Assembly: GCF_963921235.1 (NCBI RefSeq)
Contig: NC_086108.1
Coordinates: 52,020,001 to 52,084,000, forward strand
DNA from: Mobula hypostoma
Taxonomy: Eukaryota
Reading direction: 5' to 3'
DNA: 64,000 bases
Shown here: in pieces, positions 455 to 57,200 of the stretch
Numbering within the stretch: position 1 is the first letter of the stretch
Layout of the letters: every line of letters starts with the position of its first letter
Notes under the pieces: generated by a model
What the model was told of the DNA's origin: nothing
The model's database searches: none
Seen by the model: only the letters and a program-made list of their open reading frames with translations
Translations under genes and position numbers: made by a program

Positions 455-953
455 ATGGGGTGTCCAGGGAAGGGTAGCATCTTTGGTGAAAGGGCTTGTT
501 GTGCCCATTCTGGGGGCAGTTCACTCACCTTTGGTTTCCACTGGAGACACAGCCCTCAACTGTGGCCTCAATTAGCTGTTTACATGTGACAACGGCCACA
601 CCCCAGTATACTGCTTCAACAGGTGGGCTGAACCAGATGAGGATAGCTGGCAGGACTCATACCCCGATGAAGTAGGGCCATGCCTGTCGTAGCATGTGAA
701 GTCAGCTCCGGCAGACTGGCAGATGAGATCATCAGTAAAATCCAGTGGCCAAGAAAGCGGTTCTACAACCCTTCGAGGAAAGCAAAGTCATAATAAGGCA
801 CAGAAATCATGGGTTATCCACTGTAACTAAGGAAGATCCCAGTTTGTGATGACTACGCATGTCACTGGAACCAGATTTTCTGAGGTCGAGAGAGTAGAAT
901 CTCTCAGTGCTACGGCTCTTCCATTTTAAAAGTCTCCTGCACAGGTTTCACTC
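455..953 (+). mobile_element. Non-coding retroposon, probably derived from an RTE-type LINE 5' UTR, nested in the MITE
   Basis: GC-richer block interrupting the AT-rich MITE (gctgctatgt|...|tcttttgatg). Starts at a predicted HDV-like ribozyme. The RTE assignment is inferred. Confidence 0.55.
457..642 (+). ncRNA. Predicted HDV-like (nested double pseudoknot) ribozyme, degenerate copy
   Basis: P1 ggggtgt(457-463)/acacccc(598-604); P2 cctcaactg(554-562)/cagatgagg(634-642); P3 ggc(564-566)/gcc(595-597); candidate P4 region 607-627; J4/2 ctgaac(628-633). Segments are in canonical order. Confidence 0.6.
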
Positions 954-3900
954 TCTTTTGATGGTAAATGTTCAAAATCAGTTCAAAATTACCTACTGCG
1001 GATAATGGATTGCCTTCATATTGTGCTCTCAATGATTGCATCCTCCAAAACTTCATTTTTATTGTTACGTACAATATGATTGTCAACACCTTCAAATTCT
1101 TTGTAGTTTCTAACTTGTTGAAGTAGTGAAATTGTTTTATTTACACACTGTTTCTAGCATCTCCAAGCTTGAATGCTTGAAACTGCAGTGAGCAAAACAA
1201 TTCTAAATAGTCTTAGTGCTTATTTCTCACCAACTATCAGTGACAAAAATCACTGTTATTTTGAACGCAATCACTTGCAAATGATACTATTTAAAAATTA
1301 TTCTCTGTAAGCATGGTGTTTTGTATAATGACCACACAGGTTTACACAACAGACACTAGTTGGAAACTATTCAACAACAGTCTCCTGGCATAGTGTCCCA
1401 AATTAATTAAGGGAATCACAGCTATTTTCTCAAACAGCTTTTGTTCTTTAAGAGTTGTCCCAAATAAGTGGCTGCCCTGAATAACTGATGGACCAATTAA
1501 CTAGAATCCACTGTATTCTGAATGGGAGTCTTGTTCTTGTTTTGTCTTGGAGGAGAGGTACCGAGAGCAATGGTTTGGGAAATAGAGATATTGTGACTGA
1601 CTGCCCTGTCAACCATAATTCAGGGGAATCCGTTAAGTATTTTGATAAAATAAATAAATACGAAGTGTCTCTCATGGCAGATTGGTCAGTAGCCAAAAGA
1701 TTTTATTTAAAGCAATTGACGAAGGAAACACAAGGCAAAGATAATTCCTTTCATTCAGTTGATAGGGTGGTGCAAGTAAATTTAATATGAACTGTCCAAA
1801 GGGAATCAGATAAATGAAGGAGAAGTAATTGAGTGGCTAGGGAGGAAGTACAAGGGATTAGGAGTAAATGATCAGAGACTCCACAGTTAACTGTCACCCT
1901 GTGTTGTTCTATTCCATGAACCTGACATTCTCTGACCACTTAAAAATGATTCTTTGAAGCTTTGTGCTTCCTGGACCATGCAGTTTGCTCTTTTTTATAT
2001 TGATCAATGGAGTCCATTGATAAAAGGAATAAAACTGCAAGAATGTTTCCATATATCTGCAGTGTGAACTCTTCCACCAATCTGTTGGAGCTTCCTGAGC
2101 TTGTTAAGGTTACAGAGAGTCAAAGGAAAAGTTAATCACGCCTGTGCCCACCTCTAGAAGTAGAAAGTTAACCCTTTCTTTAGTGACAATGCTATCATTT
2201 GCTGCATACTATCCTTGGAGCGGCCCTCACAGTCACTTTTGTATTACATACCTGTTTGTCACGTGGGAGGTTTTGTTTGTAAATGTTGGTACTTTGGGGT
2301 AATGAATCTTGAGTAAAGCATAGGTGAAGTGTTTATTCCTTCTCTAATAATTGTGTAATATGATCTTTCAGATTTATAAGGGAAAAGGTTAGACTCATTG
2401 GTCAGTCCGACTTCTTTCCTCAGCTATTCACTGTGGCCTGACAGCAGCTCAAATATTTTCAAGGGAAAGTCTAATGAACAAGTGATAGAAACAGAATTAA
2501 CTCAGGAATGAAAGAAAAGCAGATTTTTAAAAAAGAGGCAAGAGATTGATATAAATAGGCTGCAGACTGGAAACACAATCTCAAAATGATATGAACCATA
2601 CTGAAATACCATAAATTAATTAATCCTGAAGGCAAGGATATATGTTGTGTCATTAAGAAAGTGCGATGATTAGTTCAGAAATCAAGGTTTTAGAAATGCT
2701 AAATTAGCATTTTACAGCCAATGGTTAATGAGCCAAAGAAGCAGATATCCTGACATGCTAGTGCGTTATATAGCCAATATTACTTTCGTATTGCAATGAA
2801 CAGCTAGCCTGGTTCAGAAGTATACATGTATATTCAAGACGTATCAGCTGTGCTTTGTAGAGTTTCTTCTGGCAAAGAAATATTAATAAAGCTTCCATCT
2901 GAAAAAGACAGGACACAAAATACAGGAATGCACATAAAATAGTTTGGTGATTTAGAATTGGTTCTCTCAATTTAGTTAAATTGAGTGAATACTTTTATCA
3001 AATACTTCCTTCTACAAGTGGTGTTTATTCCATATTAATCTGACCAGAATTTCAAAGTCTAAATCATAAATCTGTTTTAATTTAAAATCAAATGAGTAGT
3101 AAACCACAGATTTAAAATAGTCACTGATTTTTCCCTTTTGAAATTTGACCCATATTCAGTGAACCTAAGAATGGCAAAGCTGCATCATTCATAAAGGAAA
3201 AATGCTTTATGGTGACAGTAAATTGATGAACTACTTTTACTGAGTCAAGTTGGGACCAAATTTTTGGCACAGCTTTTTGCTTCATCTTCATTTAGGAAAG
3301 ACTGAAAGTCTGGAATTCTTGTATTCACATCTAATGTCCAATTTATCTGTTAATGAAATGGTCGTATGCAATCCACTGTGAAACAGGAAAGAAACTTTGG
3401 ATTTGGTAAGGCACATGTCATTTGGGACTGAACTCATCTGGGAAATCAACTCATTTGGTAACTCATTTCAGCTCTGGTGACCCATGCATAATCAGCAGCC
3501 TGGTATTAATGTCACCATGCATTTTGATAGCTTTGATGAATATTATTTTCAGTTAACTTCTGCTCACTAGGCTTAAAATCCTTGAAGCAGCACAATCAGG
3601 CAGTGTTTTAGAGCATAATTTTTAAATGACGTTTTGTTTGTTTTTGTAGCAGAAAAAGACCCTATTTCACAGTGATTATATATGACTGCTGAATATTCCC
3701 AATGACATATTGACATTTTGTGCCTTCCAAGTTTTCCAGTCATCCAAGTTTATGTTGGACAGTTGCAATAATATCTGAAACTTGACTTCATATGTCCACT
3801 TTATGTTGCAAGGATCCTAAAGCACATTGTTATATTTTTTCACCAAATATCAAAACCAGAGAAGATGATACAGGTGCAGGTAACCAAAAGCAGGGTCATA

Positions 3901-6678
3901 GAGGTTCAAAAGGGAGTTTTCGGAAAGGAAAAGTAAAATGATTTAGAAAAGAACCAGCAGGTTAAACCTGATCAGCTGAAGGCTCAACCCGGGGAATATC
4001 AAATGGAATGTACAAAGTTTGCACAAAAATCTCAGAAGGTTCTGGGACATGGGCGGGCTGAAGTGATATAAAGTGGAAAGGCTGTAGTGCTTTTGAACTC
4101 AGTCGTGAGAATTATGCTGATGCCGAGGCATCCAGATGGAGAACCAATATAGTAAGAAACAATGGTGAGTAAACTTAGTTCAACTTAAAATGCCAAATTA
4201 CGTTTGTATTATGCCATTATGACCCTTCATAAAATATTGTTAACACTTGCAACTCTGTCAGATTTTAAAGGGAATACTTCAGAATAATAAATAAATATTG
4301 TGTTTATTTTGCTACTTGATTTGAGGAGTGACCTCACTGCTCCAGAGAACTGTGATTAACCCTTTTCCTTTCAACCTTTCTCACCTCTGGCATCAGCCAT
4401 GGGCAATAAAGCAAACAGCCCCTCGTGAAGCATCATGCCTGTGAAGGTGTTTGCTTAAATTATTAGCAAAGGCCAATTTCTGAAGTTCCCATGTGCCCAC
4501 CATCAGCTGTGTTCCAGAAACTAGGCCATAGTGAACTTAAATTATGTAATTCTGCCCAGCTGAGTCATGCTTCAGGGAATTTTTAAATAATAATGAATTA
4601 GAATAGTGACACATTTGATTTATAACTCATGATGTAATTTTGTTTTATCCTGCAATATAACTCTACTGTATTTAGAAACATGGGGAAAAGTTCACAAGGC
4701 TCTTACCTATATGTTGTTCCAAAAATGAACAGGATCCATAGAATTCAAAGAGTAGTACTGAAAACAAAATTAACAAGTTGCAGTTTATATTTTTGTAAAA
4801 GTAAGGATCTGCTTATATTTGCCTCACAAAAGCTGGGAGAGGAGGGAGGAATTTCACACTCATTTACAGTTATGAAGAGACCTTCTGCCCTAGCTGTCAG
4901 TCACAGCTAATGAGGTATGGCATTTCATAACACATCTGACACAGTCAGAGCAATAATGTCGACCTGGCTAAATTATCATTGACAGAGATCATACTTAAGA
5001 ATTGTATGGCAAGGAGAAACAAAATATCACTGGAAAGTAAAATTCTAAGTTTTGGCAAAGAATTTTATGCATGTTAATATGCATTACTGATATTTCAAGT
5101 TGGTTATGTTAGGAATGATATAACTTGGATTTTTTTTGTTTATTTAGCTTTGATTGTAAAAATGTAACTTGAATGGTGTAATAATTTTAGTTATTCATTT
5201 AGGAAATATAGGGGTGTGCTATTTCATGGAGTGAATCTGGTCCAAGTTCAAAGCCTTGAAATGCAACTCTGAATCCTCATCCATGGGCTGCACTTCATTC
5301 ACTGTTCTTGGTGAATACATAATAGCCATTGAACTCCCTTTGGTTAACAGAGGTGATCTGATTTGGAGAGATGCATTTGAAATGTTGGAAATTGACACAG
5401 CTGTAGGATCTCAGCTCTATATTTGGGAAGGAATGAGAAACCTATTGTATATGGTGTCTGGTTTTAATAAGCACAAGTTATGCTGTGATCATTGGGGTGT
5501 ATGTTTAAGTGGGAGTTTGTAACCAAGAATTTTGTTTAACTTGTCTTTTGCACAGTTGCATTAAAAATTGTTCCAAAATGAACTGTACTTTAAGAAGAGA
5601 AAGGACCATATACTATTGATACTATGTTGTACCGGACACTCCTGTTTAGTTAAGAGTTGCTATATTCAATACAGGATGTTCGATTTATGGCTGTAGGTTG
5701 GTTTATTTGCCTATGGAAGCAGTCACTTACAAGCTGTACATTAATAAAAGGATATAATTAGTTGGAATAGATTACAGTCATCTTTTCTGAAGAAAAGAGA
5801 GAATTATGCTGCCAAAGCAAAGCAGCAGCAATGGCAGGCATTGGGTCTTTCAAGCATGTTGGAGAAATTCAGAGATACAAGCAGACCCAACCTTTCAGCC
5901 TATTTAGAGATGTAGTGGAAATTTCTCTGAGGATGAACATTGTTTTTGAGGTCCCAGGGAGGGCACAGAACAGAGAATTACAGCAGTACGTGAGAATACG
6001 AAGGCAATTTTGATGCTGGTGGTAGGATGAGATGCAAATAAAATGCTACATATGTTTAATCAAATTCACTGGCACCAGTTTACCCACCATCAAGTTCGTT
6101 CGGTATATAGAGAAAAGTGCCAGATGAAGGCCAACAATATCATGAAGGATCCCATCACTCTATTTATGAGCTGTCTGTTCCCTTTCCATCAGGGAAGAGG
6201 CTACGCAGCATCCATGCCAGGACCACTAGACTCAAAAACTGGCACTTCCCCCAAGTCATCAGGCTGAATCACAGAAGGGTGCTTGATAGCTGTGACAGGG
6301 CTTAAATGCTGTCATCTCTTACACAGTGAAACTGAGTGACATAGGTGACAACGATGCTTCATTCCTAGATGGGCTCAGTTTGAACAAGAAAACATGGAGG
6401 CACCATCACAAACACCCAGAACCCCCAACAACCTTGTGATTTCAGTCTCTAAGGCCAATGTGAGAGAACCCTTAAAAGAAGAGTGAACCCATGGGAAGCA
6501 TCTGGCACAGATGGGATACCTGGCTGAGCACTGAAGAGCTGTGTTATACAACTAGCTGGATTGTTCACTGATATTTTTAAATGTTCGCTTTGGCAGTATG
6601 CACTACCCACCTGTTTCAAGCAGGCCTCAATTAAATCGGTGCCCAAAAAATGTGACAACTTTCAATGACGATCATCCA

Positions 6679-6908
6679 TGTTGTGTATTTAATATTTGAG
6701 TAATCTGGTATATATACATTGTTTTATCAAGTGTTCTTTGTTTAAGTAATTAATTATGGGTTATAGGTATAAATATGTGAATTACATATGTCGTCATGCT
6801 ACAACATGATACGTGCATGCCTCACTTAAAGTAAACACGAAGTTAGACCCTCATTTCGGACTCCCGTGTCTTCTTGTGTTTAATGTTTTGAAGTTAGAAA
6901 ACACAACA
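6679..6908 (+). repeat. 5' LTR
   Basis: Direct repeat of 9069-9318; begins tgttgtg and ends cacaaca. Confidence 0.9.
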
Positions 6909-7127
6909 TTGGTGATGAGGTATTTTTACAACAAACCCAATACAGATATTGACCTGTTAAATCACAGCAAGATATTTGAACTTAAAAAAAAATGCAGCAA
7001 GGAACGTCAAGTAAAAAACACAGCTCAGCGTGTGCAAAGACTGTTGAGTTTAAAAAAAGGCAGAAATGGAAGAATTCATGGGTTTCATAAGGAGTGAGTA
7101 CCAGATGATAATCATAAAAAAGCAGAA

Positions 7128-8350
7128 ATGGCTGGCTACATCAAAAAGATAAACACATTTGATTACAGAAAATATAACTGGATTTTTATATACAGAGCAA
7201 ATCGAAAAGTATTTTGAAGCAAATTAAATAGCCAATGAGAAATGAGTACCAACTTTGCTGAGCCAATTGGGTTTAAAGACAGACAGTTTTCTTCGAAGTT
7301 TGACTGTTCCAACCAAACCAGCAGAAATGAACTTTGCGGATATATTCAAAGTAATGGAGGAACATTTAGAACTGAACCCATTGTTGATTGGAGAATGTTT
7401 TAGGTTTCATTAGCAGAAACAAAAGGAAAGAGAATCCATTTCAGCGTACACAGGTGAAATTAAGTGATTGAGTACTGTCACTTTGGTAATGGGCTTAATG
7501 AAACACTAAAGGATTGTTTAGTTTGCGGACTCTTATAAGAAAGCATTCAACAATGGCTCCTAACTGAAGCATAACTTACATTTAAAACAGCAGTTGAAAT
7601 TGCTGTTTCAATGGAACTCAATGCAATTGAGTTTCAGTCAGGAGATAAAAAAAAAGGATCAGCCGTGATTGAATGGTAGAGCAGACTCGATGGGCCAGAT
7701 GGCCTAATTCTGCTCCTATGGTCTTATGGAATGAAAATGAGCGTGAGCAAAATTGCAGTGTCTAAACAGAAACCGGCCTAGCCAAACACACAGTGTCACT
7801 GTTGTGGCAGGGGCTGACTCACAGCAGAACAATACAGGTTTAAGTGCAAAATTTGCAGAAAATTCGACGAAGTAGGACACATACAAAGAGCATGCCAGGC
7901 AGACAAAAATAAATGGACTGCACATAGATGAGAAAAAGATTAAAAAGTTGCAATTTCAAAAAGAGCACTAACCTGCATGCTATGGATGAAAAATCTGATA
8001 ATGAGAAAATAATGGAATTAGACACTGTTTCAACTGTTTCAGTCATTCCACAAAATGAGTTTGAGAGGCATTTCAAAGGTACTAAACGGAAGCCTGCAGA
8101 TATCCAACTGAGAACTTGTACTGGAGAAAGATAACTTCTGTGAGAATGACATCCATAACAGTTAAGTACAACAATTCAGCAGTATTGAGGTTGTATGTGG
8201 TAAAAACAGAAGCACCAGCATTTTGGGACATGATTGGCTGAGACAACTACAACTTAATTTGACATCCATCCACCATTTGCATGCCACAGCCCCTGCAATG
8301 AAGCCAAATGAAAGTGAATTAAGAAGGGTACTGGATGATGCCACAACTGT
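7128..8350 (+). pseudogene. Degenerate Gypsy gag-protease
   Basis: MAGYIKKINTFDY...WIFYTEQIEKYFEAN; zinc-knuckle remnant CKICRK...GHIQRAC; protease-like MELDTVSTVSVI and GHDWLRQLQL. Many stops and frameshifts. Confidence 0.8.
7645..7730 (+). mobile_element. Short CR1 LINE 3' tail inserted in gag
   Basis: gatcagccgtgattgaatggtagagcagactcgatgggccagatggcctaattctgctcctatggtcttatgg closely matches the CR1 tail at ~50930-51010. Confidence 0.8.
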
Positions 8351-8356
8351 CTCCAG

Positions 8357-8770
8357 TTCATCAGGCAGTTACTTGCGAACTGTGGCTTGGTTTTACGCTG
8401 GAAGAGAATTCAAGGAGTTTCTGGAAAGTTGCAAGCATTTGGCTTTTGTGAGTATATAAAACCAGAATCTATTCGGCATACAGTAAGGTTATTGCATGAA
8501 CTTCAAGTGAGAGACAAAAAGCTGCTTGTAAATGTAGATACAAAGATCAAAGCCCAGCTGGATGAATGGAAGACCAAAAAGAAAGGAGTCAATGGAGATA
8601 CGAAAACAGAGGATTTGTCAGATGATGTTGTGGATGAGGAAACCAAGAAGAGAGATCAGATTGTAAAGAGAGCAATAGAAGGATTAATAAAAGAATACTC
8701 CAGAGAACTAAATGCACCTTCCCAAGATCAGGATGCACAAACTAGAAGAAGAAAAAGGAAGATGAAGGAA
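8357..8770 (+). pseudogene. RBM25: Processed (retro-captured) fragment of RNA-binding protein 25: C-terminal part of the RRM plus downstream helical region
   Basis: Frame reads FIRQLLANCGLVLRWKRIQGVSGKLQAFGFCEY...LLHELQVRDKKLLVNVDTKIKAQLDEWKTKKK...DEETKKRDQIVKRAIEGLIKEYSRELNAPSQ. This matches recalled vertebrate RBM25 (LIRQLLAKCGLVLSWKRVQGASGKLQAFGFCEY...DEETKRRDQMIKGAIEVLIREYSSELNAPSQ). Confidence 0.92.
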
Positions 8771-9068
8771 GCTGGCTGAGACTATCAGAATCAACTCCGA
8801 TAACCACCAAGAAGGCGGCCCCAGAACCTGAGATTATTTTCACAGCCGCATGTCTCACCTGCCAACTGGAGTGACCTCCCTTGTCAAGAAAAACGTTATC
8901 CTACAGGAGTAAGTAATCCTCCATAGCGACTAAATCCTTAGACCTGAACGGAACAATTTAAAATTTACTATGCTGTGTATGCCTGTGTATAATAATTGCT
9001 TTATATAGTGTACTGTGTATATGGTTGAGATGCTTTATTTATTGAGTTGCTAGCTAAACAGGGAGGAG

Positions 9069-9318
9069 TGTTGTGTATTTAATATTTCAGTAATATTTGA
9101 GTAATCTTGTGTATATATATTGTTTGATTAAACATTTGTGTTCATTTAAATAATTCATTACAGGTTATATGTATAAATACATGAATTACATATGTGATCA
9201 TGCTATGATGCGATACATGCGTGCCTCGCTTAAAGTAAACAGGAAGTTAGACCTACATTTCAGACTCCTGTGTCTTTGTTTGAATTATTTTAATATTTTG
9301 AAGTTACAAAACATATGA
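9069..9318 (+). repeat. 3' LTR
   Basis: Follows the PPT; diverged direct repeat of 6679-6908; terminal CA mutated to GA. Confidence 0.88.
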
Positions 9319-10521
9319 ATCCAGTAACACTTACATCCGCAGTGATGAAGTGTATTGAGAGGTTGCTGATGAAGCACATAAACTCCTGCCTGCGGAGCAA
9401 CTTGGATCTGCTTCAATTTGCCTACTGTCACAAGAGGTCAACAGCAGATGCTATTTCATTGGCTCTTCAATCAAAGCTAGAACATCTGGGCAGTGGAGAT
9501 GCATAAGTCTGGATGCTCTTCATTGACTACAATTCTGCATTCAATACCATCATCTCCTCAAAAAACTAACCAATAAGCTCCAAGACTCAGGCCTCAATAT
9601 CTCCTTGTGGAACTGGATCTTTGATTTCTTCACCTGAAGACCCCAGTCAGTTTGGATTTGTAACAACATCTCTTCCACAATCTCCATCAGCACAGGCTGT
9701 GTTCTTAGCCCTCTGTTCTACTCACTTTATACTTATGACTGTGAGGCTCATCACAGCTCCAATGCCATATTTAAGTTGTTGATGACACCAGTGCTGTGGG
9801 CCGAATCAAAGATGGTGATGAATCAGCATATAAGAGGGAGATTGAAAATCTGGCTGAATGGCGCCTCAACAGCAAACTCTCACAGTGTCAACAAGACCAA
9901 AAGAGCTGATTATTGGCTGTAGGAGTAGGAAACCAGAGGTCCATGAGCCAGACCTCATCAGGGTATCAGGTGGAGAGGGTCAACTTTAAATTCCTTTAAT
10001 TTATTTCAGAGGAACTGTCCTGTGTCCAGCATGCAAGTGCATTTCAAAGAATGCACAACAGCGCCTCTGCTTTCTGAGAAGTTTGCGCCAGTTCAGCATG
10101 TCATCTGAAATTTTGACTGACTTCTTTAGATGCGCAGTGGAGAGTATCCTGATGTTGCATCATGGCCTGGTATGGGAACACCAATGCCCTTGAGTGCAAT
10201 AACGTACAAAAAGTTGTGGATCCAGCCCAGTCCATCACAGGTAAAGCCACTACTATCCAAGCCATGCTCTCTTCTCACTGCTGCCATCAGGAAGGAGGTA
10301 CAGAAGCTTCAAACCCTACACCATCAGGGTCAGGATCAGTTATTAACCCTCAACCATTAGGCTCTTGAAATAGAGGGAATAACTGCACTCATCCAACACA
10401 AAAACTGATTCAACAACCTACGGAAACAACAGGAATTCTGCAGATGCTGGAAATTCAAGCCACACACATCAAAGTTGCTGGTGAACGCAGCAGGCCAGGC
10501 AGCATCTCTAGGAAGAGGTAC

Positions 10522-10557
10522 AGTCGACGTTTCAGGCCGAGACCCTTCGTCAGGACT
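10522..10557 (-). ncRNA. Minimal type I hammerhead ribozyme motif
   Basis: Reverse complement: AGUC-CUGACGA-AGGGUCUCGGCCU-GAAA-CGUC-GACU. Confidence 0.8.
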
Positions 10558-11310
10558 AACTGAAGGAAGAGTTAGTAAGAGATTTGAGAGGGGGAAGGGG
10601 AGATCCAAAATGATAGGAGAAGATAGGAGGGGGAGGGATGGAGCTAGGAGCTGGACAGGTGATTGGCAAAGGGGATATGAGAGGATCATGGGACAGGAGA
10701 CCCAGGGAGAAAGACAAGGAGGGGGGAAACCCAGAGGATGGGCAAGGGGTATATTCAGAGGTACAGAGGGAGAAAAAGGAGAGTGAGAGAAAGAATGTGT
10801 GTATAAGAATAAATAACGGATGGGGTACGAGGGGGACTTGGGGCATTAGCGGAAGTTAGAGAAGTCAATGTTCGTGCCATCAGATTGGAGGCTACCCAGA
10901 CGGAATATAAGGTGTTGTTTCCTCCAACCTGAGTGTGGCTTCATCTTTACAGTGGAGGAGGCCGTGGATAGACATGTCAGAATGGGAATGGGATGTGGAA
11001 TTAAAATGTGTGGTCACTGGGAGATCCTGCTTTGTACCCCATCCGTTATTTATTTTTATACACACATTCTTTCTCTCACTCTCCTTTTTCTCCCTCTGTC
11101 CCTCTGACTATACCTCTTGCCCATCCTCTGGTTTCCCCCCCCCCCCGTCTTTCTCCCTGGGCCTCCTGTCCCATGATCCTCTCATATCCCCTTTGCCAAT
11201 CACCTGTCCAGCTCTTGGCTCCATCCCTCTCCCTCCAGTCTTCTCCTATCATTTTGGATCTCTCCCTCCCCCTTCCACTTTCAAATCTCTTACTAACTCT
11301 TCCTTCAGTT

Positions 11311-11346
11311 AGTCCTGATGAAGGGTCTCAGCCCGAAACGTCGACT
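11311..11346 (+). ncRNA. Minimal type I hammerhead ribozyme motif
   Basis: AGUC-CUGAUGA-AGGGUCUCAGCCC-GAAA-CGUC-GACU. Stem I AGUC/GACU, stem II GGG/CCC, GUC cleavage triplet ending at 11342. Confidence 0.85.
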
Positions 11347-14300
11347 GTACCTCTTCCTAGAGATGCTGCCTGGCCTGCTGCGTTCACCAGCAACTTTGGT
11401 GCGTGTGGCCTCAACAACCTACGGATTCACTTTTAAGGACTCGACAACTTGTGTTCTTGATATTTATTGCTTATTTATTTGTTATGATGTTTTTTCTTTT
11501 GTTGTTTTGTATTTGCACAGATCGTTGGTTGTTTTTCTATCTTTGTCGTGTGAGGTTTTTCCATTGATTCTATTGTGTTACTTTGTATTTACTGTGAATG
11601 CCTACAAGAAAATGAAACCGAGGGTCGTATATGGTGACATGTAAGTTCTTTGGCAATAAATTTCCTTTGAATTATGAACTTTGATCAATACCTCTATTCA
11701 CTAAACCACCCCACCACAACTACACACACATCACCTAGTATCACTTTATGTACGGACAATCAGTCCATATATACACACACACACCAGTTACTTGCACATT
11801 GTGTTCTATATGATTGCTTTTATATTTATTGCATTTTTCTGAATGTGTTCTTTATGTTTTTATGCTGTATCAGATCTGGAGTAGCAATCATTTTGTTCTC
11901 CTTTACACTCATGTACTAAAGAATGACAATAAACAGTCTTGAATCTTAAAATTAGCAGAAGTAGGCCTCATTGCCCTTGTGGCTGCTCAGCCATTCAATA
12001 GTCATGTTGATCAGACAGTTATATCATTTCTGCATTCCTGCTTAACCCCAGTAAGATCTCACCCCTTGTTTACTATAACTGACTTTACCCCAGCCCTAAA
12101 AATGTTCAAATACTGTACTTCTCCCTCCCTTTGAGTAAGAGTGCTCCAACTATTCACAGCGCTGAGAGAAAACATTTTACCTTCTCTCCATCATAAATGG
12201 AGTACCTATTATTTCTAAACATTATCATTTGTTCTAGTTTCTCTGACAAGGGGAGATATTCTCTCCACCATCACTGTCATAAATCCTCAGGAACTAAGAT
12301 GTTTCATTCAAGTCCTCTGTCCCTCTTGTAAACTTCAACAGGTATATCTATTCCACCCAACTGTCATAAAACAACCTGACCATATAGAAAATCTATTTTG
12401 CGGTATAAGCAGAGAACCAGCTAACAAAGATGCTAGTGGCAGTTTTGTTTTCCTTGTGGATGAGTTGTGTGAATTCAGCAGAAAACCAGTCTCATAATTT
12501 CAAAACACTGCAGTCCTTAAGGTATTACGGAAATAAAAGGCAAGGGGCTTTGCCATGGTTGTTATAAGAGATATCCAGCCTGAGGACACTCTTTTAAGAT
12601 GGCATCATGCTGTATTTTTTTTAATGATTCATTTTTTTTTAAGAGTCTGAGTGTTGTTGCCCAGGCCAGAATTCAGTTTCCATTCCTAATCACTGTTGTG
12701 AAGATTTTTACCACTGTCATGAACCATTGCAGCTCTTCTGGTGAAGCTATACACAGTGCTGTTGATAGGAAATTTCAGTACTAGACCTAGCTACAATGAA
12801 GGACAAGCAGTACGTTTCCCAATCAGGAATGGGGTGCGGCTTAAAGGGGTATTCCAAAGTGGCAGCTGCCCTTGTCCATCTTTGTGGTAGATTGCAGGTT
12901 GAGAGGTACTGTTGGAGTAACTAGTGACAAGTCCTGCAAGGCTTTTTGCAAAGTGGTGGTTGAACTGCCAATGAGCTGCTTTTTCCTCTGATGTCAAACT
13001 TCTTGAGAGTTGTTGCAGATGGACTTCTCCAGTGAAGTGGAGAATATTCCATGACGGACAGCCAAAAATATCAATGTAATTAGAAAGAGTCAATATAGAT
13101 TTATGAAAAAAAAATGTGATTTGAAAATAAATGCTCTCAATACTGTACTCTCATTGGTAAACAGACTTAGCAAGAAAGGTACTTAATCACCTTTTGCATT
13201 GAGCAACTCTCATTAGGATCACATTATAGAACGACAGAATCCAATAGATTTCCTTTCATTATATTGTCTGAGTGCACCGAGTGCGTCAGAATTATTCATA
13301 TCTTGGAAGAAATTCAGAAAATATAGACATTTTCAGCTGGTCTGGCAAGAGTTTGTGGAGAGAGAAACAGACCTTGTCAGATCTATGACCTCTAATAAAA
13401 AAAATAGAAAAACAGTTCAGTAAGATTTAAAGCAAGGAAGAAAGGAAGAATAAAAGGGAAAAGCCAATGATAGGATATAATGTATGAGACATGGACTGAC
13501 AGAAGTGGTGGTGGGGCCAGGTAACGCAGATTGGTAAAGGCATTAGTGAATGAAAAAAGATCTAGAGAAGGAGTAAATAAGGAGATGATAAATAAAATCT
13601 TAAATTTCTGGGAGTCTTTTGCCAGTTGTGTATTTCCATTTTATATTTTTAATCTGGAATCCCAGAACACCCATTGTGTTTTGCTTTTAGATATTCTGCA
13701 TGGGAATCTTTACATTAGACATGTGAAAAAAATTGTTCAAAGTGCAAGTAGGCTAAACCCTGAAAACAGATTTAAAAACATGATAGAGGGCTAAGTACTT
13801 AACCTTCAGAACATTGCCCAATTCAATATTACTGAGACAAATTTGATTTATTTTCATTCTGGCCACATGATTGTCGTTTTGTTCCGTTTTATACAATTTC
13901 CACTCACTTCAGACCCACTCTGGTGATTTTTCTTTTTCATTTCACAGTCCTGTGCAGAATTTAATTGAACTCAAGATAAATCCTGGTAAACATCTAATTT
14001 GCTTCCAAGTAACAACATTCTTCAATTAACTTTGCTAAAAATCATGGGTTTAGAATTTCCATTTCAGTCACAGCATGAATGGGGAGGTCACTTCACATAA
14101 TCTACTTGCTGTGGTTCCTTATTTATCCATGCAATAGCTCAGATAAGGCCTCAGCAATAAAAAGTAGCAATAACATAAACCACCATTTCAGAGCAACAAT
14201 TAGCCTTGCGTCATGCTCCTCTAGTTGATTTGAGGCAATGAATTGGTTCTGTTTAGAATTTTTAATAATGTAAGCGATAATTTGAAATACTTAAAGTAAT

Positions 14301-14361
14301 AACTGTATCTTGTTTCTGTGCAAAACACTTGATATGGAAATTTGGTCAAGCAGAACAGTGA

Positions 14362-15323
14362 TCAGACAGAGTGATCAGCAGCACTGGGGCTCCACAGGGG
14401 ACTGTCTTGTCTTCCTTTCGCTTCACCATTTACACCTTGGACTTCAATTACTGCACAGAGTCTTGTCATCTTCAGAAGTTTTTGGATGACTCTGTCATAG
14501 TTGGATGCATCAGCAAGGGAGATGAGGCTGAGTACAGGGCTACGGTAGGAAACTTTGTCACATGGTGTGAGCAGAATTATCTGCAGCTTAATGTGAAAAA
14601 GACTAAGGAGCTGGTGGTAGACCTGAGGAGAGCTAAGGTACCGGTGACCCCTGTTTCCTTCCAGGGGGTCAGTGTGGACATGGTGGAGGATTACAAATAC
14701 CTGGGGATATGAATTGACAATAAACTGGACTGGTTAAAGAACACTGAGGCTGTCTACAAGAAGGGTCAGAGCCGTCTCTATTTCCTGAGGAGACTGAGGT
14801 CCTTTAACATCTGCCGGACGATGCTGAGGATGTTCTACGAGTCTGTGGTGGCCAGTGCTATCATGTTTGCTGTTGTGTGCTGGGGCAGCAGGCTGAGGGT
14901 AGCAGACACCAACAGAATCAACAAACTCATTCGTAAGGCCAGTGATGTTGTGGGGATGGAACTGGACTCTCTCACAGTGGTGTCTGAAAAGAGGATGCTG
15001 TCTAAATTGCATGCCATCTTGGTCAATGTCTCCCATCCACTACATAATGTACTGGGTGGGCACAGGGAGTACATTCAGCCAGAGACTCATTTCACCGAGA
15101 TGTAGCACAGAGCGTCATAGGAAGTCATTCCTGCCTGAGGACTTTACAACTCCTCCCTTGGAGGGTCAGGCACCCTGAGCCAACAGGCTGGTCCTGGACT
15201 TATTTCATAATTTACTGGCATAATTTACATATTACTATTTAACTATTTATGGTTCTATTATTATTTATGGTGCAACTGTAACGAAAACCAATTTCCCCCG
15301 GGATCAATAAAGTATGACTATGA
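14362..15323 (+). mobile_element. 5'-truncated Rex1-type LINE
   Basis: SSTGAPQGTVLS...CHLQKFLDDSVIVGCI...LNVKKTKELVVD; MFYESVVASAI; 3' end caataaagtatgactatga. Confidence 0.88.
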
Positions 15324-15427
15324 TTGGATCAAGATTTGACCTGTACTAGATTATAAGTTTGATTTCCATCCCCCTCCCCCCCATAATATATGGTTACTAC
15401 AAAAAAAATCTGTCCATTTCCAAGAGA

Positions 15428-15620
15428 GATTACAGATGCTGGAAAACTGAAGAACTAAGTGCTGGAGCAATTTAGCAAGTCAGATGGTGTCTATGGAGGG
15501 AAATGGGCAGTTAATGTTTCAGTTGAGACCCTTCATCAGGACTGGGATAAAAGATCTTGACCCAAAATGTTGATTGTCCACTTCTCTCCAAAGATGGTGG
15601 CTGGCCCACTGAGTTATTCC
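15428..15620. mobile_element. Short palindromic Penelope-end-derived repeat with a minus-strand hammerhead core
   Basis: cagatgctggaa...atgtttcagttgagacccttcatcaggactg (reverse complement CUGAUGA...GAAAC), followed by a degenerate inverted half. Confidence 0.65.
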
Positions 15621-16942
15621 ATGTGCACTGGATCATGTTTACAGAATAAATTAATGCATAGTGATTCAGTATTGGCATTTATAGTGATATTCATGCCATG
15701 ACTGAAATGGAAATATTTGTGTTTCAACATTAACTTAAACATTATGTGCTGCCTACTGAAGCTACCAATGTGGGGATTGCAACCCTTATCTATAACTTTG
15801 CTGAGTTCCTTTTTCCATCTCATCAAAACCAATTTCTTTTTCTGAGCCAATGTGCATAAACTTGATTTTTTTTAACTGCATCTGTATTGCATGACAGGAC
15901 AGGGATGCAGTTAAACAAATTTCAAGATTTAACATTAGACAGACTCCTCCTGGAAATCAAGAGGGAGCTCATAGGAAGTGTACTGTTACCTTTCTCTAGA
16001 GGAAACTTCATATTGATAGCATTACGCAGAATTGATTAAGGACATTTTTGTGGTAGAGAGAAATTAAAACTGCCTGTTCATGTTTAATCAAGGCATAATG
16101 CTATGTTGTGTTTAAAGAATTCCCCCACGTTGATTACGATTTAATCCAGAAAAGTATCAGATTAAAGAATGTAAGTCCGCCAGTGTTTTTGTCAATTCCC
16201 CAAGAGCTTCATTCATGGTTTTGATTTAATTTCTCTCAATAGGAAACAGGTTGAGGAAATGCCTGTCTTCATAATGTTCATGTTTTTGACGTTTAGTTTG
16301 CACTAATCGGCATGCAGTTTTAATGTGTGCTTGTGTTATTTGATGAGCTCAACTGTGCACTGTTCTGCCCAAAGTGGCCACAAAAACAAGTGCCTTCGTT
16401 AGCTTCATTTACTGTACTTGGCTAAATTCTTCCAAATGAATATACAAGTAGTTTAATTTTGATTGGTTTCCACCCATATACAAGTGAGCTATTTCAACTT
16501 CATTTACATTTTAAGAAAAATCAGATATTTGAATCTTCCTTGAAGTGACCAAAAGCATGGGCCAGATTCTTTAATTCTGATGAAATACAGAGCTTGAACT
16601 TAAAACAAAATCAATTTTCTAATTGTTGTTGTTACTGCTTTCTTCCTGAAGTTACTTCATCATAATAACTGATAGGTCAAGTGTCTGCACTATGTTAGAT
16701 TACCAAAATTTTAATTGACATTTCCCCAAGATTTGAAACTAAATGCAATAATTGTAAAATCAAAGTTCCTGGTTTTCCAAAGCTTGGCAGCAAAATGAAA
16801 CAAAATTGGAAAATGACTCTTTAAGCAATACAATACATAAACCATGTGGATGAGAGTCTGCTTCACACTTAGCTGTTGATAAATCAATATCAGTGCCTCA
16901 TCGCTGACTCAAATCTATGTATTGTATGATTAAAATTTTAAG

Positions 16943-26215: not shown

Positions 26216-28276
26216 TAGTCCGTGAGCCAGGACCCCAAATTTGGGCCACCGGTACCAGCTGGGGGGAATAATTTTTATAGTGATTTTTGGCAAGGTATAC
26301 ACCCATAGTGCTAGAAAATATGTGATAGCATTGCAGCGGTGGTAGCTAACATGGCAACCTCCATGCTATAAGAATCATGAACCTTGGTCCTTTGCCTATG
26401 ATAAGATGAATTATGCCAGGTACCTGTCCCCTTACTTTGCTCAGATGATGAACCTCCCAGAGAAGAATCCTTCTGTGTATAAGGCCTTCAAGACAGGCCA
26501 ATTCTCAGTGCAGCTGTCAAGTAGCAACCCCCTTGAGCAGATCCCTGTGGACCAGGCTATTGAAGCCACAGTAAACAAAGACACACAGACTCCTGGAGGC
26601 ACATCACAGTTCAGCCTGAATGCTGGAGCTATCAAGTGTTACTACATAACACCTGAGCACCACAGTGCATTCCTGGGACAGTTAAGGGAGATGGTGCAAG
26701 GCAACAAATCAGAGCTTTGTCATGCGGAGCTACAGCGGCCAAGAATCCAGAAAGATGAGGAAGCAGTTTCAGCAGTGGTTAGTCTCATACATGAATGGGT
26801 CAACCCATTTGCAGAGAAGTGGGACCTCATTAGCATCTCTACGGCAAAGGCAGCCCCCAAAGACATTGCCTTCGACCTGATGAAGGCATATGACATTGGT
26901 GAGCAATGCTATGCAACCTTCAAGGATGAGAGACTAGAGGAAGACCCACCAGCAAAGAAATTCCATGACCCAATGAAAACCAACAAGCTGAAAACATTCA
27001 GTGATATGTGTAAGAAGAGAGAAGTGAAATCAAATGGGAGGGCGATCATCTTGAAAGCAGACAGGTCTTTGTTTGGAAGCATCATAGTGACGGCACAAGG
27101 GCGCAGTCTACATATGGAGGATATCCGTTCTCATCCCCTTGGACCATTGCCCTGGGCCCTGTCCATACCAGAAGGATTGCTGAGAAAGACAAATAAAGCT
27201 GCTTTACAGGATGTGACACTGTAAGCGCTCTTGCAGACAAAGGGAAGACAAGCCCTAAAACTTCTGACCAGCAACAGGGAAACTCAGGACACATTCTTAG
27301 AGTTGGGTCAGGAATGGGACCTCTCCCCAGAACTGATGGACAAACTGGAGGCATTTACATGTCTCCTGTATGCCCCAAAAGCATCAGCCACCAAGGTCAG
27401 TGAGCTCAGGTATCACCTTTTCTGTGCCAAAAAAGGTGAAATTGAAAGTCATCAACTCCCACCATGCAAGGACTGCTTAACAAAACATACACAGAGAGCC
27501 AACTACCAGGCTGGTATATGGAGAAGATGTTTGGAGAAGGACCCACAAGTGCCAAGCCCTGTTGGCAGAGGGTGGAAGATGGAGAGAGAAGAGGAAGCTG
27601 AACAGTTGGTGGTGCACTGGATGGAAGGCCAGGCAGCACCCGATGCTGTCCTGGATCTACTGGCCTGTAACTGTCCAAAAAAAGTGTTCACTCACAAGAT
27701 GTACATGTGTTGCAAATGGCCTCAGGTGTATTGACATATGTAGACTGGCAGACTGTGAGAACCAGGCATCCACCTCAGAGAGTGTGGAAAGTTCATATGA
27801 AGATGTGGAAGACGTAGAAGACTTGGAAAATTATTATGATTATTAATAGGTTATGACAGTATGGAAAGCAGTCTTTGATTAAATATATTCATTTTACAAC
27901 TAAATGGGGCCTAGGTTATTGGCCGTGTGGAACCGCTTTGAATTATTGTACTGTAATTCTATATGCTATGACAAAAGCTTAAGGTTGTTTTGATTTGATA
28001 CAACAATATGGAAAATATCATGACATTGATAAAACTCCAAAAATCTCTCCAAATGAGGTTTTTTACCTTTTGGGGGGGTGGGGTAACATTTTCTGCTGTA
28101 CTGATGTTAATATGGAATATATACAAAAAGTGATTACTTATTTGAAGTAATAAAGCTACCACTGGTGCAATGCTATCACATATTTTCTAACTCTAGAGAT
28201 GTATACCTTGCCAAAAATCACTATGAGCATTATCCCCCTCAGACAGTACCGACTAACCCTACTGGCTCACGGACTA
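26216..28276 (+). mobile_element. Academ-superfamily (AcademX-like) DNA transposon, internally deleted
   Basis: TAG...CTA termini; ~125-130 bp imperfect TIRs (26216-26347 and 28154-28276); 3-bp TSD tat; transposase, XPG-like and Cys-rich coding remnants. Confidence 0.85.
26406..27846 (+). pseudogene. Academ transposase/XPG/Cys-rich zinc finger remnant
   Basis: NYARY...DQAIEATVNK...GG; FTGCDTVSALADKGK (XPG H3TH-like, frameshifted); LPPC..CL..H..RANYQA.IW; CNC...C...C.C...GL.C...C...CEN. Confidence 0.8.
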
Positions 28277-43910: not shown

Positions 43911-46900
43911 CAGCATTTCTCAACCTTTTTGCCCTAGAAGAAATCCTTTGAAATTATTTTCAGGACTCAGGGAACCCCTGTGTAAAAATTATTATATCTA
44001 CAGCCCAGGGCACGTTAACGTGATTAGTATGTTATGGGTATAGTAATTCAAAAATAATTGTCAATTGTTCTTTTGAGTAGAGAATGAGTTTTTAGCCAAC
44101 CTTTCTTGAAAAAAGGTAGTTAAGCTTAGCTTACCTTTTTTGAAATTCATCTCTTTCTTTCCCTTTCATAAATTTTAAAAAGCCATACAGTAAACATAAT
44201 AAATATCTGTTAAGTAACTGCCTTAAGCCAAAATAGGATTTAATTTTTCTAAAGGTAGGCTCAGAAGATTTAATTTAAATAAAGGTTGTACATTGATTTT
44301 AATTAATGCTATTTACAACATGAAAATTTATTGACAATGTTGAATAGTAGAGTCACTAAAAACTGTGAGCCAAAGCAATATGAATAGAAATATAGCCTAA
44401 GCTACAATTTTATATAAGACTTTGAAAAAGCATTTTCTTACTAAGTGACATGATCAGGCTCAAATATAGGCTTAACATGTGAAGCCACTGTTTTTTGCAG
44501 CACAAGTACTCAATTCTGGGTCAAACTTGAGATAATCACTCACAGATTTCACCTTCAATTGAAATGGGTTGGTTTCTATCCTTCCCCTTGATACTTGTTA
44601 AACAAGAAAAAGCTTGCTCAGACATGTAAGAAGTTGAAAACTGCAGCAAAATGTTCATTGCTTTCCTACGAATGGCAGGATACTCGTCTTTCACAGAAAT
44701 CTAGAATGTGTCCAGGGGCAAGTCAGTAAATCTTATCTTTATTGCATGATCAGAGAGCAGCTCACTAAGTTTTTCCTCTTCTCTCAAAGTCAAATTCTCA
44801 GGCTGAGCAGTAGATTCAGAGAAAGGGTTCTTCACCCAGTTATACACTTATGTTGAAAGGGAGGAAAAATGCTGTTCAATTTTGTTCTGCAGTTCTTCAA
44901 GGTGGTTTTCAATAAGACTCGAGATTTTCTGACCCTTCCTCACTCTCAAGCACAAGCAGTAGTAGAATCATTTTAAGATTTCCTTTTGCAACATGATTTT
45001 TCTAAAGATTCAGTTTCTTTTTAAATCCAAGAATTTTGTCACTTGAAGTCAGAACATTTTCTCCAAGGCCTTGCAGGGACGTGTTCAACTGGTTTATATG
45101 ATGAAAAATGTCTAGTAGACTAGTAGACTAATGTCTGTAGTAGACTAGTTTCTGCAGTCATGCTTCATCTTCAAAGCACTCAACAAACTCTGGCCTACAA
45201 CTTTCTTGAAAGTATTCCTGCAATTCACCCTTCAGCTCAAACACCCTGTTGAAAACTCTGCAAAGCTACTGGATTTCTGAATGTATCAGGAGACTGGTGT
45301 GCTCTTTGTCCAGGTTTTCACAATCTTTTAAATGTTTTCTAGTGAACTGGTCTTTGTTTAATAAAGTTAACAATTTTTGTAGCATCATCCAGAACTTTTT
45401 TCATTTCAGCTCCAAGAGTTTTTGGCATCAGCACCTCTCTGTGAAGAAAGCAGTGTGTTGTGACAACATCAGGATTTTCTTTTTTTTTTACAAGAGAAAC
45501 AGAACCTCTCATGGAGCCAACCATTGATGAGGCACCATCAGTACAGATGTCAACACAGTTCCTCCAAGACAGGCCTTTTGTTTCCAGATATGAAGACAAA
45601 ACATTAAATATATCTTGGCCTTTGCTTGTCTTGGGCAGCCCTTTGCAACAGAAAAAGTCTTCTTGAATTTCACCATCATTTACAAATCTTACAAATGCTA
45701 CAACATGATATTTATCGGTGAAATCTGTTGACACATCAACCTCGATAGAGAAGTTGTTGTTTTTCAGTTTTATCACACAAAACCTCTTCAGCATCATGTA
45801 ACATGTCATCAATATGTTGACTTATCATACTGTTTGAGAGTGGCCGCCATCTTACCTGAACAAGAACTGTGCACGAGCCCACAACTGTGACCTTCTCACA
45901 CACATAGAGGACACTATACAGGCTGCAGTCACTCAGTTCACCGAGGCTGTTGGGCTCTCGGGTTAATGGTCAGTCTAAAGAAAACAATGATCCTCCATCA
46001 GAAGCCCCCTCATGGCACTTACAACCCACCTTGGTTCACCATTAGTGACCAACCTCTCACCACAGTTGAGCAGTTCACCTATCTGGGCAGCATAATCTGT
46101 AACGATGCTATGGTGGTAAGGGATGTTGACAATAGACCCGCCAGAGCTAGCAGTGCCCTCAACCCCACCCCCCAGAAACGTGTGTGGAAGAACCATCAGC
46201 TGCGTCTGTCCACAAAAATCCAGGTGTACAGAGCTGCTGTCACCACATCACTGCGATATGGCTTTGAAGCCTGGGTCTTGTACCACAAGCAAATCTGATT
46301 ATTCAGATGCTTCCATCAGCACTGCGCCCACTCCTTCATGGGAATCAGCTGGCAGGATTGTGTCTCCAACAGCAAGTCCTGGAGAAGGCTCAGCTTCCAA
46401 GCGTTGAAGCCACTTTGCTGCTCAGGCAGCTCTGTTGGCCAAGCCACGTGTCTCACATGGACAACTCCAGGTTATCGAAAGCAGTACTTTACGGAGAACT
46501 CTCTCAGGGCAAGAGAGATCATGATGCCCCGTGTAAGAGATACAAAGACCAACTTAAGCAGCGGCTCTCTCAGGCAAATATCAAGGTCGACGAGTGACAG
46601 CAGTTGGCTTGTGACAGAGACTGCTGGAGAATGCTGATCCACGGTGCAGCCAAGAATTTTGAGGGATCCAGGAGAGCGACTACTGAAGAGAAGAGGAGAC
46701 ACAGGAAGGATCCTACTACTCAATTGTCCGCATCCCAGCTGCTCCTGTGTCCCTATTGCTCCAGAGTCTACAGATCCAGAATTGGCCTCTACAGTCACCA
46801 ACGATCGTGCCGTCGCTCATGAAGACTCTTCTTCCCTCCTGATCTTCATAAGCAAAGAACCAGCCATCATCATCACTGAGCGTGAAACCTTTTCAATTTC

Positions 46901-50700: not shown

Positions 50701-51010
50701 CTCAGGGTGTCTGACCCTCCAAGGGAGGAGTTGTAAAGTTTGATGGCCACAGACAGGAATGACTTCCTATGACGCTCTGTGTTGCATCTCGGTGGAATGA
50801 GTCTCTGGCTGAATGTACTCCTGTGCCCACATTATGTAGTGGATGGGAGACATTGTCCAAGATGGCATGCAACTTGGACAGCATCCTCTTTTCAGACGGG
50901 AACTGGGGTTGAGGAGGAGAGGAAAAAAAAGATCAACCATGATTGAATGGTGGAGCAGACTTGATGGGCCAGATGGCCTAATTCTGCTCCTATGTCTTAT
51001 GGTCTTATGA
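47760..51010 (+). mobile_element. Near full-length CR1 LINE ORF2 (AP endonuclease + RT), degenerate
   Basis: HLNARIIRNK; PEDWKIANVTPLFKK...NYRPVSLT; VYLDF.K.FDKVPH; SGVPQGSVLGP; KFADDTK; tail tatgtcttatggtcttatga. Confidence 0.93.
50552..50897 (-). mobile_element. Rex1-type LINE 3' fragment nested in CR1
   Basis: Reverse complement of the ~14985-15323 tail; (tcatag)n on +. Confidence 0.88.
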
Positions 51011-56215: not shown

Positions 56216-57200
56216 TGGTGCTGGGCCCGCAACTGTTCACAATATACATTAACGATCTGAAGAGGGGGGCCGAGTGTAGTGTATCTAAGTTTGCTGATGA
56301 CACTGAATTGAGTGGAAAAGCAAATTGTGCAGAAGATACAGAGAGTCTACAGAGAGACATAGATAGGGTAAGTGAGCGGGCAAGGGTCTGGCAGATAGAG
56401 TACAATGGTGGTAAATATGAGGTCATCCACTTTGGAAGGAAAAATTAAAGAGCAGATTATTATTTAAATGGTAAAAAATTGCAGCATGCTGCTGTGCAGA
56501 CAGACTTGGGAGTGCTTGTGCAGGTGCAGCAGACTATCAAGAAGGCAAATAGAATGTTGGCCTTCATTGCTAGAGGGATTGAATTTAGGAGCAGGGAGGT
56601 TATGCTGTAACTGTACAGGGTACTGGTGAGACCACACCTGGAGTACTGGCATGCAGTTCTGGTCTCCTTACTTGAGGAAGGAAATACTGGCTTTGGAGGC
56701 GGTGTAGTGGAGGTTCACCAGGTTGATTCCAGAGATGAGGGGGTTAGACTATGAGGAGAGATTGAGTCGCCTGGAACTGTACTCACTAGAATTCAGAAGA
56801 ATAAGAGGAGAATCATATAAAATTATGAAAGGGATAGATAAGATAGAGGTAGGAAAGTTGTTTCCACTGGTAATTGAGACTAGAAAAAGGGGACATAGCC
56901 TCAAAATTCGGGGGAGTAGATTTAGGATGGAGATGAGAAGGAACTGCTTTTCCCAGAGAGTGGTGAATCTGTGGAATTCTCTGCCCAGTGAAGCAGTGGA
57001 GGCTACCTCAGTAAGTATACTTAAGACAAGCTTGGATAGATTTTTGCATAGTAGTGGAATTAAGAGTTATGGGAAAAAGGCAAGTAGGTGGAGATGTGTC
57101 CACAGCCAGATCAACCATGATCTTATTGAATGGCGGAGCAGGCTCGATGGGCCAAATGGCCGACTCCTGCTCCTATTTCTTATGTTCTTGTGTTCTTATG
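56216..57200 (+). mobile_element. 5'-truncated CR1 inserted in the Gypsy 3' LTR
   Basis: VLGPQLFTIYINDL...KFADDT; FSQRVVNLWNSLP; tail ttcttatgttcttgtgttcttatg. Confidence 0.9.

Follow-up and report, generated by a model that had tools for sequence, protein, structure and literature searches.

A dispersed non-autonomous Gypsy-type family carrying a spliced piece of RBM25 in place of its pol core

How did a piece of RBM25 come to lie between the two LTRs of a retrotransposon, and did the resulting chimera spread? The question arises in a window of 64,000 nucleotides (C50:52,020,001-52,084,000 of a 3.48-Gb genome, judged from RBM25 to be that of a vertebrate), where a first-pass annotation had read a Gypsy element whose RT-RNase H-integrase core was replaced by RBM25 mRNA, and which may have amplified as a non-autonomous family. 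The stretch 6679-9318 is a decayed Gypsy-type element nested in a LINE (Table 1), the label Gypsy resting on Pfam models and on the order of the domains.

The outer signals that had been read from the letters (two LTRs, PBS, PPT and a 5-bp TSD) were confirmed by LTR alignment, tRNA-Ser(GCT) matches and the LINE frame at the empty site. The LTRs of the window copy can be aligned end to end and differ by 15.9% (227 sites); the 5′ LTR has the form TG...CA, and the terminal bases of the 3′ LTR are decayed (other copies end in ACA). Joining the flanks with the element and one ATCCA deleted yields a single open LINE reading frame, and ATCCA is therefore a genuine TSD. The LINE RT remnant that the element splits extends over 5900-6678 and 9319-10300, its frame being continuous at the empty site, and a weak RVT_1 Pfam match (E = 0.007) at 9294-9503 overlaps this remnant. 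PBS differences among seven copies are as expected from CpG decay, and the PBS complement ends 14 genomic sites, with all four that were inspected being tRNA-Ser(GCT) genes.

Between the LTRs, the three forward frames of 6909-9068 returned no Pfam match to RT, RNase H or integrase and only a weak match to RRM_1, in agreement with the reported absence of the pol core. What had been called an integrase C-terminal tail 3′ of the insert is the sequence that follows the integrase core in four other loci (L132, L134, L139 and L141). The gag-protease assignment stands as far as homology to pol-bearing relatives carries it; both regions are too decayed for a Pfam match, and 7066-7900 is called gag-like. 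The window copy also has a deletion of roughly 100 nt 5′ of the protease-like region. The repeat inside its gag, presumably SINE-like, is of a type that recurs at 50915-51002 and 57125-57184 of the window and many times across the RBM25 region and its introns. Elsewhere in the window, long ORF remnants (292, 169 and 160 aa) at 26346-27734 (+) and 45339-45821 (-) presumably derive from DNA-transposon genes, and an Rfam scan of the window gave no match.

Table 1. Features of the RBM25-bearing element, in window positions
Feature	Position	Strand	Basis or remark
Left TSD, ATCCA	6674..6678	+	In LINE RT remnant; empty site restores open LINE frame
5′ LTR	6679..6908	+	LTR-LTR alignment
PBS, tRNA-Ser(GCT) type with CpG decay	6910..6920	+	PBS states in 7 copies and genomic tRNA matches
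gag-like region	7066..7900 (borders approximate)	+	Stops and frameshifts; collinear with pol-bearing relatives
Short dispersed repeat inside gag, window copy	7640..7728	+	Other copies have a gap opposite element 965-1050
Protease-like region and linker to 5′ switch point	8010..8345	+	Decayed; same position 5′ of RT in 28/30 pol-type loci
5′ switch	8339..8348	+	TGCCACA common to pol linker and tip of RBM25 exon 3, then ACT
RBM25 cassette exon, first 7 nt of 48	8349..8355	+	~190 nt deleted 3′ of it in window copy
RBM25 end of exon 4, exons 5, 6 and most of 7, spliced	8356..8739	+	RRM and the helix after it
Remnant of RBM25 exons 9 and 10, purine-rich	8740..8771	+	Left by nested deletions; comparison with long and medium copies
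Integrase C-terminal tail to pol stop	8772..8941	+	Same sequence 3′ of integrase core in L132, L134, L139, L141
PPT, AGGGAGGAG	9060..9068	+	Sequence
3′ LTR	9069..9318	+	LTR-LTR alignment
Right TSD, ATCCA	9319..9323	+	LINE RT remnant continues 3′ of it

The RBM25 identity of the insert is clear from protein comparison: with E ≤ 0.001 as the limit, 8357-8770 (414 nt) matches 182 proteins, the best of them at E = 7e-51, and the named proteins among the 120 matches listed are RBM25, the others being unnamed RRM/PWI proteins; a PDB sequence search with the RBM25 piece gave no match. The parental gene lies on the minus strand of contig C1 at ~99.79-99.84 Mb; a search with 112 aa from the C terminus of gar RBM25 located it, and a 140-kb region was compared. 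Two loci returned by a Pfam PWI search for the parent gene are not RBM25. Alignment to the parental locus bears out the earlier reading of an intronless insert drawn from several exons. Exons are numbered here by our own count. The window insert is 86-90% identical to the host exons, its joins are exact at GT-AG borders, and it crosses four host junctions (8348/9, 8377/8, 8435/6 and 8596/7) without the host introns (1.7-5.8 kb), those of 1.7, 2.8 and 4.8 kb among them. Two lone LTRs of the RBM25-bearing family (C1:99876648-99876891 and 99906403-99906635) are situated upstream of RBM25, at 36 and 66 kb from the first of its coding exons to be located.

The extent of ~414 nt given earlier describes the part that matches at the protein level; the RBM25-derived piece starts at 8339 in the window copy, and the original capture was larger. 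Long copies cross e7|e8, e8|e9 and e9|e10 and reach the start of exon 10, so the original capture was ~1.07 kb long and took in nine exons with the eight junctions between them. It ends in the middle of exon 10, far from the mRNA 3′ end. The window copy is a short form: at 8355/6 it alone has lost ~190 nt (most of the cassette exon described below and most of the next exon), and the last ~30 nt of its RBM25 piece represent later exons left after two internal deletions. In a set of 60 copies, from which L116 was omitted as a duplicate of L009, the first five RBM25 junctions are crossed in 50, 57, 58, 57 and 52 copies, respectively. The junction sequences of these 60 copies contain neither poly(A) nor a TSD belonging to the insert at either end, as had been stated for the window copy. 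None of the observations named beforehand as counting against a captured mRNA family (a single-exon source, retained introns, poly(A) or a TSD specific to the insert, a single copy) was made.

The captured mRNA included a 48-nt cassette exon, VSMLYTMNRCPTEGKQ, which lies at C1:99832585-99832632 (- strand) alone within a 9.3-kb host RBM25 intron, with canonical splice sites, in frame and without a stop. Host exon and element copies show zero family-wide differences in the cassette, and the two of the 60 copies that have lost most of it did so through deletions that kept its first bases. Its 16 residues occur in none of 120 fish and amphibian RBM25 proteins (regex check). A ‘poison exon’ is ruled out by its being 48 nt long, in frame and stop-free, and an origin from the element is ruled out by its canonical splice sites and the single-copy intron on its acceptor side.

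Microhomology at the junctions, proposed earlier as something to look for at the parental locus, was found at both ends. TGCCACA (7 nt) is common to the element linker and host exon 3 and lies exactly at the 5′ changeover of the chimera; GAGAAGAAA (9 nt) is common to host exon 10 and the integrase tail and marks the 3′ switch point, being decayed in the window copy (8740-8771). The second word is present in all three readable pol-type loci, once exactly and twice with one change. These shared words are short (7 and 9 nt) for purine-rich sequence, and chance may contribute to them. Because introns are lost at every junction examined and such words lie at the switch points, the evidence supports the proposed capture of mRNA by template switching.

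Pol-bearing relatives were sought with a 20-nt pattern for the post-protease linker that excluded the RBM25 continuation (424 exact matches, control 0). Thirty of the 424 loci were inspected: 28 are of pol type, mostly running on into an RT-like frame, one is a chimera and one is unrelated. L132 and L139 have Pfam matches to RT and/or RNase H, H2C2 and rve in Gypsy order, and they have LTR, gag-like, protease-like and tail sequence in common with the window element. The two switch anchors are 3.1, 3.2, 3.9 and 4.6 kb apart in four pol-type loci; about 3.1-3.2 kb corresponds to the replaced RT-RNase H-integrase core, and distances up to 4.6 kb reflect later insertions. One further locus, L142 (C1:48169700-48178200), has a pol-type 5′ side and an internally deleted pol, and the bases before its integrase tail resemble the 3′ junction of the chimera, by chance or as a recombinant.

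The chimera was amplified as a dispersed non-autonomous family, as the first reading had suggested it might have been. The junction region of the window returned 4,486 candidate matches, and 40 of 40 that were scored match; at all 39 scored loci besides the window, RBM25 runs on into the integrase tail. The RBM25 part alone returned 2,577 candidates (40 of 40 scored match), the exact 24-nt 5′ junction has 136 genomic matches (control 0), and the spliced e6|e7 junction has 714 matches at ≤2 mismatches (control 0). Six of 36 junction-picked copies pass a second test, which gives an estimate of ~4,300 copies (2,200-11,000); an alternative pairing (2 of 29 copies) gives ~2,000 (600-16,000). We thus estimate the family at 2,000-4,500 copies. 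A chimeric 22-mer has 137 matches vs. the 424 of the linker 20-mer, so that, assuming equal age, very approximately between one quarter and one third of the lineage is chimeric.

Copies lie on many contigs and on both strands, share the junctions, and resemble the window element as far as the LTRs and no further. Among 57 loci examined, both outer LTR ends are present in 16, and in six of these 16 the TSDs match at 4-5 of 5 positions (shuffled pairs: 5/240), all six being different; this script count omits the ATCCA of the window copy, which the script missed. L065 has a seventh readable TSD, which the script missed through a border error and alignment recovered. TSDs are unclear at the remaining nine two-LTR loci, which decay, nested LTRs or recombination may explain. 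One small copy of 1.65 kb (L159, 2333-3980) has both LTRs and a 4/5 TSD with most of gag gone; it may represent a still smaller subfamily or an LTR-proximal deletion.

Average divergence is 13% between the copies and the host exons and 17.5% among the copies themselves, and LTR pairs differ by 16-34% (nine copies). Private changes amount to 10.5, 10.1 and 9.6% at codon positions 1, 2 and 3, respectively (60 copies of thousands); since change is equal at all three positions, the copies decay neutrally, and no intact RBM25 ORF under purifying selection was found in these 60. Family-wide differences from the host tell of an earlier phase, with 19 synonymous changes vs. one replacement (130 vs. 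455 sites). Most simply, this would mean that the host gene accumulated synonymous changes after the capture and that spread began soon after it; purifying selection on a fusion in the source element would also produce a ratio of 19:1. In the cassette, two replacements that are linked (P = 5e-5) define a subfamily, and several source elements were therefore active. Long, medium and short forms arose where short repeats in the purine-rich sequence coding for RE/RD had led to deletions: 29 junction-picked copies comprise 10 short, 7 medium, 4 long and 8 unreadable ones, and the BLAST-picked copy set is biased to the short form.

The RBM25 piece is in sense orientation and in frame with the protease, and open frames span the join in seven distinct copies (L030 with 244 aa, the longest, L021 with 236 aa, L129, L101, L104, L009 and L102). 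Spacing on the 3′ side is distributed over all three frames (12, 10 and 3 of 25 copies). Transduced retroviral oncogenes likewise carry host coding sequence in frame behind gag/protease, have lost replication genes and need a helper. The resemblance to them drawn earlier thus holds for the in-frame join; the copies, however, decay neutrally, no public fusion protein was found, and the family differs from such oncogenes in that no env-like gene, no selection on the cargo and no sign of a phenotype was seen. The search for a public fusion protein speaks weakly against one: among 1,154 representatives, the best 150 all leave residues 1-72 of the query uncovered, and eight candidate fusion proteins, judged on lengths alone (134-427), yielded none, again a weak negative.

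A double template switch very probably captured spliced RBM25 mRNA, with the chimera then being amplified by the enzymes of its relatives and decaying neutrally. Spliced RBM25 mRNA including the 48-nt cassette would have been co-packaged with the RNA of a Gypsy-type element. We infer that reverse transcriptase, within the particle, switched at GAGAAGAAA from the integrase tail to RBM25 exon 10, reverse-transcribed ~1.07 kb of the mRNA and then returned to the element at TGCCACA directly behind the protease. The product would be what the copies display, namely, an element with LTRs, PBS, PPT, gag and protease and without RT, RNase H and integrase core. Repeated copying, evident from the amplification, would have been carried out in trans by enzymes of pol-bearing relatives, starting probably soon after the capture, while RE/RD-repeat deletions shortened the source elements stepwise. 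The copies then decayed without selection, the window holding one dead copy of the short form. The RBM25 cargo was most likely a neutral passenger.

The same origin may be combined with a different role of the cargo: a Gag-protease-RBM25(RRM) fusion, or the RBM25 RNA piece itself, may have aided the spread of the element and been selected at the element level. The sense orientation, the frame shared with the protease and the natural open frames over the join fit such a role, as do the persistence of the RRM in every form against the loss of the RE/RD repeats, the share of the chimera in its lineage and the single replacement fixed family-wide. By chance, however, one join in three would be in frame, the two true subfamily markers are replacements, the 3′ spacing falls in all three frames, and the protease side is covered by no public protein among the best 150 representatives. 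The ratio of 19:1 is explained by purifying selection on the host alone, because dS (0.15) is near the neutral 0.10 of the copies, and shortening and loss of pol commonly favor non-autonomous elements according to the accessible part of Tan 2016 (PMC5131818). We consider selection on the cargo unlikely. If it did occur, with a fusion or a splicing-active RNA raising the copying rate, a selfish element would have co-opted a host splicing-factor domain, and this would have driven one of the largest retrocopy expansions of a single gene among vertebrates.

Two further origins have less in their favor. A LINE-made RBM25 processed pseudogene may have inserted in, or recombined with, a Gypsy element at the DNA level, removing the pol core before amplification; the window is rich in LINEs, to which a recent preprint (10.64898/2026.06.26.734816) attributes most non-mammalian retrocopies in its main text, and DNA repair also uses short shared words. 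Such a pseudogene would be expected to bring poly(A), a TSD of its own and anchoring at the mRNA 3′ end; the insert has none of these, stops mid-exon 10, and replaces ~3.1 kb of pol rather than interrupting it, with both ends on shared words, which makes this route very improbable. Segmental or tandem duplication of one insertion, with no retrotransposition, could account for a pair such as L005 and L020 on contig C91, which are 9% apart against a mean of 17.5% and, with 1.25 Mb between them, may reflect later duplication or conversion. The spread over many contigs and both strands, the likeness to the window element that ends at the LTRs and the differing TSDs leave duplication with hardly any probability as the source of the family.

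The preferred reading, capture followed by retrotransposition, can be followed into other organisms. Runs were found with the host 3′ UTR, and contigs of 4 of 22 were compared with copy L007 at 80% likeness; these four runs represent four organisms and four studies, and their contigs carry the RBM25-bearing family. Contigs in X2 (records 9 and 10) bridge the protease-RBM25 join, and those in X6 (record 29), X20 (record 20) and X11 (joints) do so for the join of RBM25 to the tail; record 20 of X20 has ~335 letters between, and its loose end reads exon 9|10. None of the runs listed is on record as RNA; the four are only guessed to be RNA, their contigs giving neither start nor strand. That contigs of four organisms carry the family suggests an origin before their split.

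The mechanism is already published. As described in the accessible part of Tan 2016 (Genome Res 26:1663, PMC5131818), LTR-mediated retrocopies carry partial mRNA in place of internal ORFs, with microsimilarity at the switch points (median 6 bp), secondary retroposition and no LINE hallmarks; the six species described there include no cartilaginous fish, and the amplified cases have few insertion sites. The RBM25 family agrees in that the host sequence lies between the two LTRs of a single element and was integrated together with them, ORFs are replaced by partial spliced mRNA, microsimilarity is present (7 and 9 nt), LINE hallmarks (poly(A), own TSD) are missing, and the switch points are shared at many sites. 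Features of Ty3/Gypsy elements are present as well (TG...CA LTRs, a tRNA PBS, a PPT, a TSD of 4-6 bp and the order RT - RNase H - integrase in relatives). The RBM25 family differs from the Tan 2016 cases described there in scale, with 714 sites counted, thousands estimated and ~10% decay instead of few sites, and in that it carries an alternative exon and went through a series of nested deletions. Its scale is thus unusually large.

Maize Bs1, from what is given in PMC5131818 and PMC5408686, is likewise a non-autonomous LTR element with host exons, all copies of which share their switch points; it has 1-5 copies, three parent genes and a hybrid ORF argued to be functional, whereas the RBM25 family has one parent gene and thousands of dead copies. 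The crocodilian ERV captures of KIT-ligand and nectin3 (Chong et al. 2014, PMC4299795), so far as that text was available, also concern host mRNA in a replicated LTR element of a non-mammalian vertebrate and are common to several species. Those elements, however, are retroviral, with nine and six copies and KIT-ligand ORFs under purifying selection, whereas the RBM25 family is Gypsy-type, has lost pol and decays neutrally. The preprint cited above, which covers 244 genomes, puts the number of retrocopies in cartilaginous fishes at 14,081, links those of non-mammals to LINEs and interprets lineage-specific top parent genes as a sign of selective filtering; its main text has no mention of RBM25 and Gypsy, and its supplements may list RBM25. 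A search for literature on RBM25 with retrotransposons or retrocopies and on chondrichthyan LTR retrocopies, outside which lay most subscription papers and Repbase/Dfam, returned no paper on the family.

In this family every step of an LTR-mediated capture is legible, from the parent gene and the switch words to the helper-type relatives, the deletion series and the descendants, at a copy number that exceeds those of the Tan 2016, Bs1 and crocodilian cases by two to three orders of magnitude, as described in the parts of those sources available. For retrocopy censuses, it means that thousands of copies of one gene can stem from one capture and selfish amplification, without selection on the copies. 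The copies will confuse RBM25 annotation and read mapping. The family is also a fossil transcript, keeping an RBM25 isoform with the 16-residue cassette.
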